Below are positions 1 through 17,593 of a stretch of DNA of 64,000 bases, in pieces (positions within the stretch are counted from its first letter, which is position 1; each line of letters starts with the position of its first letter). Made by a program: the position numbers and the translations under genes. Source of the DNA: Psammoneis japonica (Eukaryota); contig QPGO01000089.1 of NCBI GenBank assembly GCA_008632985.1, positions 248,001 to 312,000 on the forward strand, read 5' to 3'. Below the pieces are notes generated by a model. It worked only from the letters and a program-made list of their open reading frames with translations. It did no database searches and was not told the origin of the DNA.

Positions 1-2566
1 CTGCAATTGACACAGACTCAAGTTCTCTCTTCAGCATGCTCCTCAGTGTGAGCAGAAGGGTGACCTTGTCAACTCCTGATGTGACAAGATCCACAACAAA
101 CTCAATGATCTGCTGTCCTTCCTGACATGCAAAATGCCTGCTGTCATCAACCCTGGTCACATCTCAGGAAGCCCAAGCTCCACAAGGCAGTTCAGCAGGT
201 TGCCAAGTGCAGCTGCAGACTCAAACAAAGTTGTGAAAGAGATTGTGAGGTGCATCATGGGTGTGGAGATGTTCTTCTCATTTGTTGCTGGTGGAGTGAG
301 GTGTTGGCTGTGATGCTGCTGTGTTTTGTGGATGTCAGAGAGTGGCCAACACTTCAATGCTGAGCCTTGCTTGCCCAAAACTCCAGAGCAAACTCTGGCA
401 TCAGGGAGATCACACAAGGAACAGGAGTCATTTGAAAATGTTTTGTCATTGACAACAAATTTGTTTTCACAACAAAAAATGCAAAACTCTTGTGTGAGAA
501 AATGTGGTGCACAACATCACACTGGAGAGTGGTTGGAGCCAACAACTTTGTGGGAACTCAGCTGAAATGTTGTCTGATCAAAGGCACTTTGATTTGCACA
601 CTGAAGAACAACACCTTTGATCAGATGACATCAATTGACTGCCCAAGAATTTGACCTTCAAACAAGGACAGATGGGCAGACTGACAGCGGTCATTTTTGC
701 TCTCCTGCACAAATTTGGCACAATGACTCTGAGAGCCATGATGACTCCTGTTGAAACAGAGAACAAACAACAAACCTGCTGGAGAGAGGAGGAGAAGAGT
801 CAAGGAAGGCACCAGCACCCACACTCTTCAGTTTGAAAAAGACATTTTGGCACAAAAACAACAACTCTCACAACAGCCAGAGCTGCTTTCCTCTGCTTGT
901 GTGGCTCTTGCACCCCCCCCAGCCATGTTCCAGCCATGAGTGCCAAACAAAAAAGTGAAAAAACGGACATTTTGTTGAGCCGATGCAGATTTCGTGTGGC
1001 TCATTTGTGGGTGCTTGAGTGTGCTAAAAAGACCCACCACCTGAGTGTGCCCAAACAGGCAGCTGCTCTTCATTTCTCATTCTCATTGAGTTGAGAAAGC
1101 ACCCCCTTGACACAAGGGTCATTGATCTAGAGTTGGAGTTTGCATTTGTTGTTTGTCAGCATGGTCTGACAAAACCAGCTGAAAGTTCACGTCATGAAAA
1201 CATGAGCTTGCCAAGATTCCAGGGATCCACAAATCTGATTCACAAAGAGTGCAGACACCATGTGCATCATGAAGGAAGTGATGAAATGTGGTGTCTTGCA
1301 TGCCAAAATGGACCTTTTGCATTCACAAGATTTTGCGCTGCTTTTTGCACCACAGAAAGTTGACACAAAACAGACCAGCAATGCACAGAAACAACCTGGC
1401 AAGCCAACTTAGATGAGGCTGATTTAACGGCACTGTTTTTGTGTTGAGCACTTTAAGATCAGGGGGGCAAGGTGGCCTGAGAAGAGGGTGTGCAAATTTT
1501 GCAGTTGAAAGTTGCTGAAATCTCAACAAGTTCATGGTCATTGACATGATCAAAAAAGAAATGGAGCCAACAAACTCAACCAGCAAAACATGATGGCTCT
1601 GATGGCATCATTTGCATTGCCACAAGGTGGAAAAAAGCAGCTGCTGCTGTGTGTGGTCATGTTCATTGCCAAGTCAGCTTCACTTTTGGGGCTTGCTTTT
1701 TACTGAAAAAACAGCTCTGATGTGTTCCAGCTGTGCATGAACAAAAAAATGCAAAAAATGGACATTTTTTCATGCAGACATGGGTTTCACATTGTTGCTG
1801 ACTTGAGAACAAACTTGCAAACCCAAAACTTTGTCTCTTGCACTTGCAGTTGCATCAAAAGCATCCCAGCACAAAGAGCCATGGATCTGGAGCTGAAATT
1901 AACACTTGCCCTTGTGTGACTTGACAAGCCAATTAAAAACCCATGTTGCAAAAAGATTGGCTCACCAAGATTCTGCATTGCTTTGGATCTGGTTTTGTGC
2001 CATTTGCCCAATGCAAAAAGAGCACTTTCGAGCTTGTTGTGAAAACATTCCCAACTTTTGAAATGTGCAAAGATGCCAATGGTTGAACCGCCACAGAGTT
2101 CTGCATGGAATGACACTGGTTTTTTGGCGCAACTTGCCATGGCGGTGTGTGCTCATTTTTTAACAACTTTTTTCAACTTTGTCATTGCAGCAGTGGCACC
2201 AATCAACAACATGCATGAAGTGGACACTGTGTGTGTCACGAAGGAGGTGATGAGCTGTGGTGCCTTTTGTGCCAAAACAGGCCTGTTGCAATCACAGGGT
2301 CTGCTCTCCTTTTTTGCATCACAGAATGGCCACGTTGATGCACGAGGTTGCCAAAACAGATCTGAAATGCACAGAAACAACCTCACAAACCAGGTTTTGG
2401 ATGCAGCAGATTTGCAGCATTGTGCCAGCGTTTGAGGGTTTTGCCAGCACAAATCTTGCACACAAAAAAGATGTCGAGTCTGTCCAGCGTTCACAAAAAT
2501 GTCCAAACGTGCTGATTGACGCACTCTTTTAGTTCAAAAAATGCTGCCGGCACATCGCACATCATC

Positions 2567-3092
2567 CAAGGGCTGAGATGAGCACATGGCTCAAGGAAAT
2601 GGTCAGTCCTGCCTGCTCGCGACTCAGCACTTTGCTGCAGTGAAAATTGCACAGGAGTCCAATGATGACAAAAACGGTCAGATTGCTTCCGCTGACAACA
2701 ACGTCTGCTGCATGCAACGCACATTCCTTGTTCTTCAATGCATGAATTAAAAACTTTGATCATCAAATGCAGTTGCTTCGCTGGCCATTGCCAAAATGAT
2801 GCTGCGAACTGTGTTGCGCACAAATCCACGGTGCTCCGTGCGATTCGTCTTTCACTCGGAGGATGAGCTTCCCATTTGTCAAAGCAACTGCACCCAACAC
2901 CCAAAATGGCAGGTTCGAGCATTTGCAATCACAGAATGCAAATTGCACGCAGCTGACATTGTTGTTGGTGGAGTTGTCTGACTGTTTTTGTCATCGTCAG
3001 ATTCCTGTGCAATTTTCACCATGGGAAAGTGCTGAGTCACGAGTGGGTGGGACTGACCACTTCATGTTTGCGCACGCTCATCCAAGCCCTTG
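2567..3092. repeat. Degenerate ~115-bp inverted repeat pair (2567-2682 / 2977-3092), possible MITE relic
   Basis: The reverse complement of 2977-3092 aligns to 2567-2682 (shared tggtcagtcc, gactcagcacttt, gtgaaaattgcacagga, atgacaaaaac). Confidence 0.8.
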
Positions 3093-16200: not shown

Positions 16201-17593
16201 TGGAAGGGGGCAAGCAGGGGCCGACAACTCCGCCGCTGCGACGGCATTTCGTTCCGAGGTGGTGGCCATGGTGATTTTTTGGTTTGTGGAAAAAGGCTCG
16301 TGTTTTGTACAGCATGCTAAATTTTCTTTGGGGGGGCGTCTTTGGAAGTGAGATCGTCGAAGGCGGTCTGATCGCCAGTGCGTTTGGGGGTTTTCCCAGT
16401 GCATTTTGTACGCACAAGAAAACACGTAGGATCTGTCCAGAGATCCCAAATACCCAATCGCACTGATTGACAGACTGTTTTAGTACAAATTCTACGTAAC
16501 TTTCTTCGACAGTCTCACTTCCGAAGACGTTCCCCATCTTGGTCGGAGGGAGAAGAGTGCAACGTCACGTCAGCGTCACAACGGAAATTATTTTACAGGA
16601 TTTGGTCGTAATAAATTTGCGTATACGTAGAGACATACCAGCCGCTACTGTGTACGCTTCTGACACTGTCGTGGGTTGTGCCAAGCGATAGAGCACGGCA
16701 ATGGCGGCCATGAATGAATCTGCATGGACCGTCATGTCATGCAAGTGAGTGGAGAGCGAACGCAACGCCAAGCAACCAATGAAAAGAGGTGGAAGTTCAT
16801 CTGAACACTGAATGACTCTCTCCACACCATGGCGAGTAACGAAGAAGACGAGGAGAGGTTGGGCCATGCATGTTTCAAAACGTTCCGGAAACTTCCCCGA
16901 CAAATTACCGTCGCTAGCAGCTGCAAATTACGGGTGTTTTTAAGTAGTGAAACGATCCGGAAGCCCAACCGGCTGATGGTGTGGTGGATGCTAGGGTTCT
17001 TCTCACCTTCATACCATGGGGTCTACAGCTTGCACACATGTTGCGGAAGGCGCAAGATGGGGAGTGGGGAGCACAATGTCACGTGCAGGATATGATATGG
17101 ATACGAGAAGAGGAAGAGCACTTACAATAGCAGTGGAAATGAGCAAGAAGCAAGAACCATTTACTCGAGAAACGCTATCAGGACACGCTCGCATGATTGA
17201 AGCGTGGCAAGAATCGGAAGCCGAAGAGTGCGCTGCTACCGCCGATGAAATTTTCGACGCTTCAACTCCATCCAATAAAGAAGGAATCAAGCATCTTCCA
17301 TCCAAAGATATGATTGGTGTGGAAGAAGACACACGGTCGCTGGAGGTGTTTATGAAGCTGCGTCGCGGCGAGGCTTTGAAAAGGTTTTAGAAGAGCCCAA
17401 CATCCGAGACATGTTTCCAGACTTGACGGTACGCTTCTTTCAGAATGGAGTCGCGTTTGGACGGGATTTGGTAACGGAACGACTGTCTTTGAATGCTCCC
17501 ACCTTTGTTGGAATAATTACAGGCTCGGCACTCGTTATGGGGTGCCGAGCGACAGTGACAATCAAAGATATCATTGTCGATGCCAATGCTGAT

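Follow-up and report, generated by a model that had tools for sequence, protein, structure and literature searches.

Nearly TA-free blocks in nuclear DNA of Psammoneis japonica probably reflect targeted TpA to TpG/CpA mutation

Extent, borders and composition of the purged blocks

We analysed 64,000 nt of DNA from Psammoneis japonica (contig QPGO01000089.1), called the window below, to which all counts refer. The window is intron-poor nuclear DNA and contains four blocks from which the dinucleotide TA (TpA) has been almost entirely purged. The largest block, the main domain (1-16,300, no strand assigned), holds 42 TA where 717 would be expected if the density of the window's own normal DNA applied to it, and its CG retention ranges from 0.07 to 0.50. 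This domain reaches the left end of the window and continues beyond it. A preliminary description of the sequence had reported that TA is nearly absent over 16 kb, with none in the first 1,024 nt and about 30 in 13.1 kb, and our counts bear this out: the first TA of the window lies at 1,025, and the first 13,100 positions contain 29 TA and the first 16,300 contain 42. The TA observed/expected ratio (o/e) was between 0.00 and 0.10 in all 16 of the 1-kb segments of 1-16,000 (normal DNA, about 0.64) and was 0.04 over 1-16,200.

The same description had placed recurrences of this state at three sites, all of which are real, although one border was slightly misplaced. These are a purged core at 22,710-24,400 (no strand; TA retention 0.10, CG retention 0.80), a block at 48,905-54,620 (no strand; CG retention 0.17 to 0.72 within the block), the start of which had been put slightly late at 48,970, and a block (no strand) that begins at 55,385, ends at 57,805 and holds a 2,320-bp run free of TA. 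The latter two are separated by an island at 54,621-55,384 (no strand) that is normal by its TA counts and is unexplained, and a small TA-bearing leak lies inside the first of them at 54,250-54,330. That block begins about 280 bp upstream of a 799-codon open reading frame (ORF) at 46,222-48,621 on the minus strand, and the 55,385-57,805 block stops about 170 bp short of the next ORF. The four blocks sum to 26,128 of the 64,000 bases, or 41% of the window.

Block borders are sharp to tens of bases and intermediate TA states are absent across the 64 kb. In this two-state pattern the only TA-free gaps of at least 200 bp outside the blocks were one that spans a run of N and one of 206 bp, whereas the longest inside them was the 2,320-bp run. 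In the main domain TG (o/e 1.74) and CA (1.77) are equally enriched, the average for CG is low (0.34) and AA is not depleted (1.32). Purged DNA has a TA frequency of 0.0026, shows no rise in AG and differs little from normal DNA in GC content (0.49 and 0.47, respectively). GCGCGCG was considered as a boundary motif and rejected, as some of its 13 matches are not at a border. No convincing inverted repeats were found to flank blocks other than 22,710-24,400. The assembly has two gaps in the window, 318 N at 17,594-17,911 and a single N at 18,870; both sides of the 318-N gap are repetitive and 17,912-18,102 resembles 18,375-18,547.

Mode of TA loss

The composition of the blocks was modelled by taking the window's normal DNA and changing 96% of TA and 50-66% of CG to TG/CA. 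The modelled DNA matched purged DNA with r = 0.97 for dinucleotides and r = 0.96 for trinucleotides, whereas unmodified DNA gave only 0.72 and 0.71. The secondary shifts of purged DNA, a fall in AT and a rise in GC, likewise came out of the model in the right direction.

Duplicated sequences provide a second line of evidence. If each copy of a duplicate loses its TA dinucleotides independently, the two copies should end up with different products, one TG and the other CA, in half of the cases. In six pairs of purged paralogues (1,125 columns, 66-88% identity) 30 of the 98 adjacent double differences were CA versus TG, as compared with 7 of 98 in nine TA-normal pairs of non-overlapping units (Fisher p = 4e-5). 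From CpG decay by itself 14.4 such columns rather than 30 are expected (Poisson p = 2e-4), a value derived from the 5 CG=CG and 24 CG-versus-TG/CA columns of the purged pairs, and the excess of about 16 columns is approximately what normal TA density would give. TA was present in both copies in 0 columns of the purged pairs and in 71 of the normal pairs. The excess beyond CpG decay indicates that TA was lost in place, after duplication. Within the window no purged-versus-normal paralogues were found at the protein level and one 110-bp pair was found at the DNA level, in which 2,428-2,538 (plus strand) is a TA-poor copy of TA-normal 16,380-16,489. This is the only poor-versus-normal pair in the window, where no TA-normal master copy of purged DNA was found. 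Among predicted proteins, P0118 had no homologues and P0125 had none among longer proteins. P0124 gave four weak armadillo-repeat matches, the best at 31% identity, which are too distant to allow codon-level polarisation by an outgroup.

The pace of TA loss was separable from that of CpG loss. TA retention was 0.02-0.10 in 13 of 13 sub-blocks, in which CG retention ranged from 0.07 to 0.80, and about 6% of TA persists in purged DNA. In 22,710-24,400 and in 52,001-54,250 the purging of TA has left 72-80% of CpG in place, hence TA loss is several-fold faster than, and distinct from, CpG loss. The two products arose alike on both strands. The TG fraction was 0.47-0.51 in the four blocks, and TG and CA outcomes were unclustered (runs z = -1.2; chi2/df = 0.89 in 500-bp bins), which speaks against the editing of a single strand of RNA or cDNA. 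Strand-coordinated editing was rejected by the same lack of clustering. In the relic ORFs described below TG and CA were about equal at codon positions 2-3 and 3/1, where selection would favour one of them. These equal outcomes led us to reject selection as the force steering TG versus CA; the relic frames decayed neutrally.

Retention of TA depended strongly on the flanking bases. It was 0.43 for TTAA, 0.18 for CTAA/TTAG, and 0 for both ATAT and ATAG/CTAT (heterogeneity p = 9e-23), a bias that cannot be put down to how abundant the possible TG/CA precursors are. The refractory nature of TTAA and the full purging of ATA/TAT would be expected of an agent having a flanking-base preference. Retention of CpG in the purged blocks also varied with context, being 0.71 for GCGC, 0.66 for CCGG, 0.30 for TCGA and 0.29 for CCGA/TCGG. 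By 5' neighbour TCG was retained least (0.34, versus 0.52 for GCG; p = 2e-5). This dependence is significant, modest and suggestive, and it is compatible with ordinary methylation patterns.

The purged sequence was recovered from a public sequencing run (X1), which contains 0.90 of the sampled 31-letter words of 48,001-58,000. The k-mer contigs of X1 reproduce the purged sequence over 1-17,500, for example in a 2,352-bp piece with 19 differences, and the k-mer depth of purged contigs was 54-68 versus 56 for a TA-normal contig. As these contigs match the purged sequence, an artefact of consensus polishing is ruled out, and the stoichiometry of purged DNA equals that of the remaining genome. For the same reason an assembly artefact is unlikely, and so is the reading of a modified base as G or C, which the preliminary description had offered as one possibility. 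Other genomic copies agree with this picture: seven flanking or inserted stretches beside purged families, totalling 219 nt, contain 0 TA, while an eighth stretch of low agreement holds 2 TA. Differences between the window and other genomic copies were classified for 37 positions within 1-16,300, taken from the best-supported 40 of 1,405. Those classified included 3 further CA-to-TG double changes, 11 CG-versus-TG/CA sites and 2 TA-related sites, and they too, along with the weak evidence of the poor-versus-normal pair, point to TA having been lost in place. The sequence was found in one study only, and no RNA run was among the runs listed as containing words of 48,001-58,000. A further run, X2, covers the TA-normal repeat at 16,353-17,590 (depth 29-167) and almost none of the purged DNA; its kind could only be guessed and nothing is concluded from it.

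X1 contigs were also used to estimate copy number, by mapping at a minimum of 80% identity, such that more diverged copies fall outside the mapping. The 1,263 contigs mapped, 234 of them at 99% identity or above and 387 at less than 90%, indicate that much of the purged DNA is multi-copy. However, the purged stretch 9,345-10,512 (no strand) looks single-copy, its summed depth of about 54-57 being that of one X1 contig. Conversely, a very high-copy repeat that adjoins the main domain (16,353-16,936, no strand) is TA-normal at a summed depth of 6,096, versus about 55-70 for single-copy DNA, and a nine-copy tandem array at 29,276-30,981 likewise retains TA. Targeting is therefore shown to be independent of copy number, as far as copies of at least 80% identity are concerned. 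The repeat trigger implied by the earlier analogy with repeat-induced point mutation (RIP) of fungi is thus not supported. It also qualifies the earlier statement that purging always affects degraded repeats or genes and never intact genes: the intact-looking genes (ureide permease, EamA and others) are indeed TA-normal, but the purged 9,345-10,512 looks single-copy.

Genes, relics and repeats in the window

Pfam scans of 192 stop-to-stop ORFs (78 + 114) gave one credible match, to a RanBP zinc finger, and one weak armadillo (ARM) match. The zinc finger lies in a 403-codon open frame of the main domain (6,011-7,219, plus strand) that lacks Tyr codons, has no homologues and includes two 255-bp tandem units at 6,425-6,928. 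From these sequence features we read it as a probable dead gene relic. The second relic, of an armadillo-repeat gene, occupies three frames at 52,160-54,003 on the minus strand, in which Tyr makes up 0-0.4%, Cys 4.8-7.5% and His 2.9-4.8% of the residues. The loss of Tyr and gain of Cys and His noted in the preliminary description was borne out, with Tyr at 0-0.6% in eight relic ORFs versus 1.4-3.1% in six control ORFs and with Cys and His raised in the relics. The relic frames owe part of their length to the loss of TAA and TAG. The scanned ORFs showed no reverse transcriptase, integrase or transposase, nor any viral hallmark. The heavy mutation of purged DNA, most of which is multi-copy, hides its ancestry.

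Of the intact-looking genes, the flanking ureide permease (62,741-63,982, minus strand) has its best named relatives in diatoms (Seminavis, Amphora and Epithemia) at 42-52% identity, and no near-identical protein was found in the database, so that the DNA does not come from Bigelowiella natans, which has a public proteome. This one gene is the basis on which the DNA is placed, by its sequence, with diatoms. Metagenome contigs carrying its relatives gave four loci, two of less than 2 kb and two resting on weak matches, and were unusable in looking for TA deserts in other diatoms. No tRNA genes were found in the window. A bacterial-type promoter scan was discarded as meaningless for this organism.

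The purged core at 22,710-24,400 is enclosed by a 97-bp inverted repeat, the left arm of which (22,527-22,623, plus strand) is 98% identical to the right arm (24,424-24,520, minus strand), and both arms are TA-normal. In the resulting unit of about 2 kb (22,527-24,520) the arms are GC-rich and contain (CG)n, the adjacent 25-90 bp also keep normal TA, and the similarity of the arms does not continue inward. The unit may be a non-autonomous DNA transposon. Within the main domain, 2,567-3,092 is a 526-bp imperfect palindrome with arms that are 66% complementary, and X1 contigs show strand-switch joints there.

The other repeats lie in TA-normal DNA. The high-copy repeat next to the main domain, taken over 16,353-17,590, has summed contig depths of 6,096 and 448 in two bins and no ORF with a Pfam domain. 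The array at 29,276-30,981 (no strand) consists of 9.2 copies of a 183-bp unit at 82% identity, with a higher-order period of 371 and a mildly lowered CG o/e (0.69-0.80). A 561-codon ORF at 34,808-36,493 (minus strand; Cys 6.8%, TA-normal, no Pfam match) contains internal 351-bp repeats (35,384-36,352, 2.7 copies at 75%), and a dispersed direct repeat of about 450 bp and 85% identity is found at 37,597-38,055 and 44,088-44,528. Directly downstream of the EamA-family ORF, 61,383-61,720 is CTAG-rich and made up of 6.5 tandem copies, at 93%, of a 49-bp unit.

Interpretation and comparison with known systems

To our knowledge, before a preprint of 2026 no natural targeted A:T to G:C editing of chromosomal DNA was known. 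That preprint (Mettrop et al., bioRxiv 10.64898/2026.01.13.699255) reports that integrated viruses and other foreign DNA of the alga Bigelowiella natans undergo localized hypermutation, which arises de novo and turns TpA into TpG or CpA. In mutation-accumulation lines 231 of 302 nuclear mutations fell in a giant-virus region and a virophage region, and 230 of these 231 were A to G or T to C, all of them on TpA. The main target was the giant-virus region, which is 186 kb, single-copy and transcriptionally silent. The rate was about 6e-7 per site per generation, roughly 1000-fold above background, and 11 of 15 lines were affected. The B. natans genome has 124 clusters that are depleted of TpA and enriched in CpA and TpG. 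Its low-TpA coding sequences have a TpA frequency of 0.0018, are enriched in reverse transcriptase, DDE and zinc finger domains, and are mostly unannotated. An ADAT2-like DNA adenine deaminase was proposed by the authors (all from 10.64898/2026.01.13.699255). In our full-text literature searches only this preprint described the TpA to TpG/CpA spectrum, and because of it the earlier statement that no such system had been described no longer holds. By the preprint's cluster criteria (Rho), 23 of 64 windows of our sequence qualify, with clusters at 1-16,000 (16 windows) and 49,001-53,000 (4 windows).

We consider it likely that the P. japonica blocks are the end state of a targeted in-place TpA to TpG/CpA process of the same kind as that of B. 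natans, here saturated and in a second, distant lineage. The preliminary description had argued for such a process apart from CpG decay, and in this it is upheld by the composition model, the excess of double differences, the CpG-independent saturation and the B. natans lines. The process would make A:T to G:C transitions at TpA only, giving TpG or CpA on both strands alike, within sharply bounded domains and with neighbouring genes spared. The agent would be an enzyme, perhaps a DNA adenine deaminase, that deaminates adenine next to a 5' T in DNA, the resulting inosine pairing as G. It may be guided by chromatin state or by some other mark of silenced or foreign DNA, and its role would be to disable such DNA through the loss of Tyr codons, of TAA/TAG stops and of signals rich in TA. 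From the B. natans figures we estimate that, during activity, each TA undergoes about 2e-5 events per generation. At that rate a block could lose its TA in about 1e5 generations or fewer, and the lack of intermediate states here would be consistent with this. More tentatively, TpA-directed DNA editing might be common to Rhizaria and stramenopiles, mark its targets by chromatin or foreignness rather than by repetition, outrun CpG decay several-fold and leave a footprint in which TTAA is refractory and ATA/TAT edited. In a bolder version of this proposal the same deaminase would take cytosine at TCG, and if so part of the 'CpG decay' of the blocks would be editing rather than methylation damage. 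This version draws on TCG being the CpG context least retained here and on the deamination of DNA at TCG by amphioxus ADAT2 (PMC10354150).

Several observations weigh against a targeted process of the B. natans kind. No viral or transposon Pfam domain was found in any of the 192 ORFs (0/192), and three viral-contig scans turned up no relatives, and thus the foreign-DNA targeting seen in B. natans is not evident here. The enclosure of a purged core by an inverted repeat with normal TA is unexplained. The CpG-only prediction rests on just 5 CG=CG columns. Alignment of depleted against undepleted copies, the check that the preliminary description had recommended, is weak, being confined to a single pair of 106 columns: two of its five aligned TA had become TG as proposed, but two were otherwise changed and one was kept. 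X1 probably derives from the very sample that was assembled, and its library type is unrecorded, hence the confirmation it gives is not independent. Finally, amphioxus ADAT2, the sole ADAT2 shown to edit DNA, prefers GAA rather than TA for adenine, and TCG for cytosine (PMC10354150). As a precedent it serves for the chemistry but not the specificity.

The most serious rival is a slow non-enzymatic or repair-dependent context bias in heterochromatin (for example through biased correction of T:G or A:C mispairs, or through an error-prone polymerase having a TA hotspot) that has come to equilibrium with no dedicated editing. The purged DNA is old, as judged by paralogues of 66-88% identity, and CpG-depleted, no enzyme has been identified, and the residual 6% or so of TA could be an equilibrium level. 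We nevertheless regard such a bias as unlikely. TA is saturated even in blocks that keep 72-80% of their CpG, and so is lost several-fold faster, and no intermediate states occur in 64 kb. The signature of a WA-type polymerase is not seen, as AA shows no depletion and AG no increase, while the small rise in GC from 0.47 to 0.49 speaks against a general AT-to-GC drive. Moreover, the B. natans spectrum comes in bursts, in 11 of 15 lines.

It is more doubtful still that the blocks arrived free of TA, as inserted elements or foreign or viral DNA bearing an extreme donor signature, or as RNA or cDNA edited before integration. The TG-versus-CA excess between duplicates places the loss of TA after duplication, and the strand bias and clustering expected of RNA or cDNA editing are lacking. 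Host-type sequences, the armadillo-repeat and zinc-finger relics, were purged as well, no viral relatives appeared in the three viral-contig scans, and the remaining composition fits mutated host DNA. Arrival in a TA-free state would account for the sharp borders, for the block set inside terminal inverted repeats, and for purged DNA that is mostly multi-copy (1,263 X1 contigs at 80% identity or more) with no TA-normal master copy in the window. Least credible is an error of sequencing, base-calling or polishing, such as a modified base at TpA being read as G or C, to which we give hardly any weight. Heavily modified DNA can mislead some sequencing platforms, and our sequence comes from one study with no library type on record. 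However, the X1 k-mer contigs reproduce the purged sequence at the depth of TA-normal DNA (54-68), and the seven stretches from other genomic copies are TA-free too, unlike the low-agreement eighth. A misread at a palindromic site would not yield clean site-by-site TG or CA calls, and in B. natans the signature consists of real heritable mutations.

As the prior report concerns one species, a saturated case in a diatom-like organism would show that the targeted process is not a chlorarachniophyte quirk and suggests that a possible genome defence is more widespread. It would also show that the reach of such a process can extend to much of a genome (41% of this window) and to DNA without recognisable viral genes. 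Testable specifics of the case are the outrunning of CpG loss by TA loss, the absence of a link to copy number and the flanking-base preference, the last of which any candidate enzyme must reproduce. For annotation, the loss of TAA and TAG leaves the blocks with long false open reading frames, and the Tyr-free, Cys/His-rich pseudo-proteins these encode can lead gene prediction and the annotation of repeats astray. Base-editing research, too, would have an interest in a natural DNA adenine editor specific for TA.

RIP in Ascomycota converts CpA/TpG to TpA and is triggered by duplication. It resembles the P. japonica pattern in being a saturating, dinucleotide-specific transition hypermutation that acts in blocks, wrecks coding capacity and skews dinucleotide indices. 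It differs in taxon and runs in the opposite direction, since here TpA is removed, CpA/TpG are enriched and GC goes slightly up, whereas GC goes down in RIP. Here, also, the tandem array and the high-copy repeat keep TA while apparently single-copy DNA is purged. Lacking both a TpA excess and a duplication trigger, the blocks led us to reject fungal RIP. Deamination of 5-methylcytosine changes CG to TG/CA and cannot remove TA. Changes of CG to TG/CA are present in the same blocks, where CG o/e is 0.34 and copies still differ by CG versus TG/CA, but as sole cause deamination was rejected because it explains the loss of CG only and TA retention can be as low as 0.10 at a CG retention of 0.80.

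ADAR and APOBEC3 act on RNA or single-stranded cDNA and give strand-biased, clustered and partial editing, and the natural substrate of ADAT/TadA is an adenine preceded by U. The proposed process would share with ADAR, APOBEC3, ADAT2 and TadA the use of deamination as a mutagenic weapon, a neighbour-base preference and the reading of A to I as G. Unlike ADAR and APOBEC editing, however, the changes seen here are symmetric, unclustered and near-complete, and RNA A-to-I hyper-editing copied back into DNA was rejected given the lack of strand clustering and an AA o/e of 1.32. In E. coli, very-short-patch repair depletes CTAG by way of a T:G-to-C:G bias associated with the repair of 5-methylcytosine deamination, and the case is similar in that a TA-containing palindrome is lost to CA/TG products. 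That depletion is mild, affects the entire genome and depends on a single pentanucleotide context, whereas here the purge is domain-restricted and directed at every TA.

The closest system is that of B. natans, from which the present case departs in several ways. B. natans is a rhizarian and P. japonica a diatom-like stramenopile, and the accessible text of the preprint mentions neither diatoms nor stramenopiles. The blocks here are saturated, whereas the active region of B. natans derived from a nucleocytoplasmic large DNA virus still has 3.3% TpA, and they are known from standing sequence alone rather than from de novo mutations in lines. No recognisable viral or transposon domain is present here, and CpG loss co-occurs with TA loss; CpG has 0 mentions in the accessible text. 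The flanking-base bias and the block bounded by an inverted repeat are seen here and do not figure in the B. natans description as available, where flanking bases go unmentioned. The two systems nevertheless agree in having a zinc-finger domain among the purged sequences and in the lack of annotation of most affected genes, and the TpA frequency of P. japonica purged DNA (0.0026) is comparable with that of low-TpA coding sequences of B. natans (0.0018). Both target DNA without dependence on copy number and leave TpA-depleted, CpA- and TpG-enriched clusters as the long-term footprint. Above all, the apparent dinucleotide target, the two products, the strand symmetry and the confinement to discrete regions beside normal DNA are the same in both organisms.

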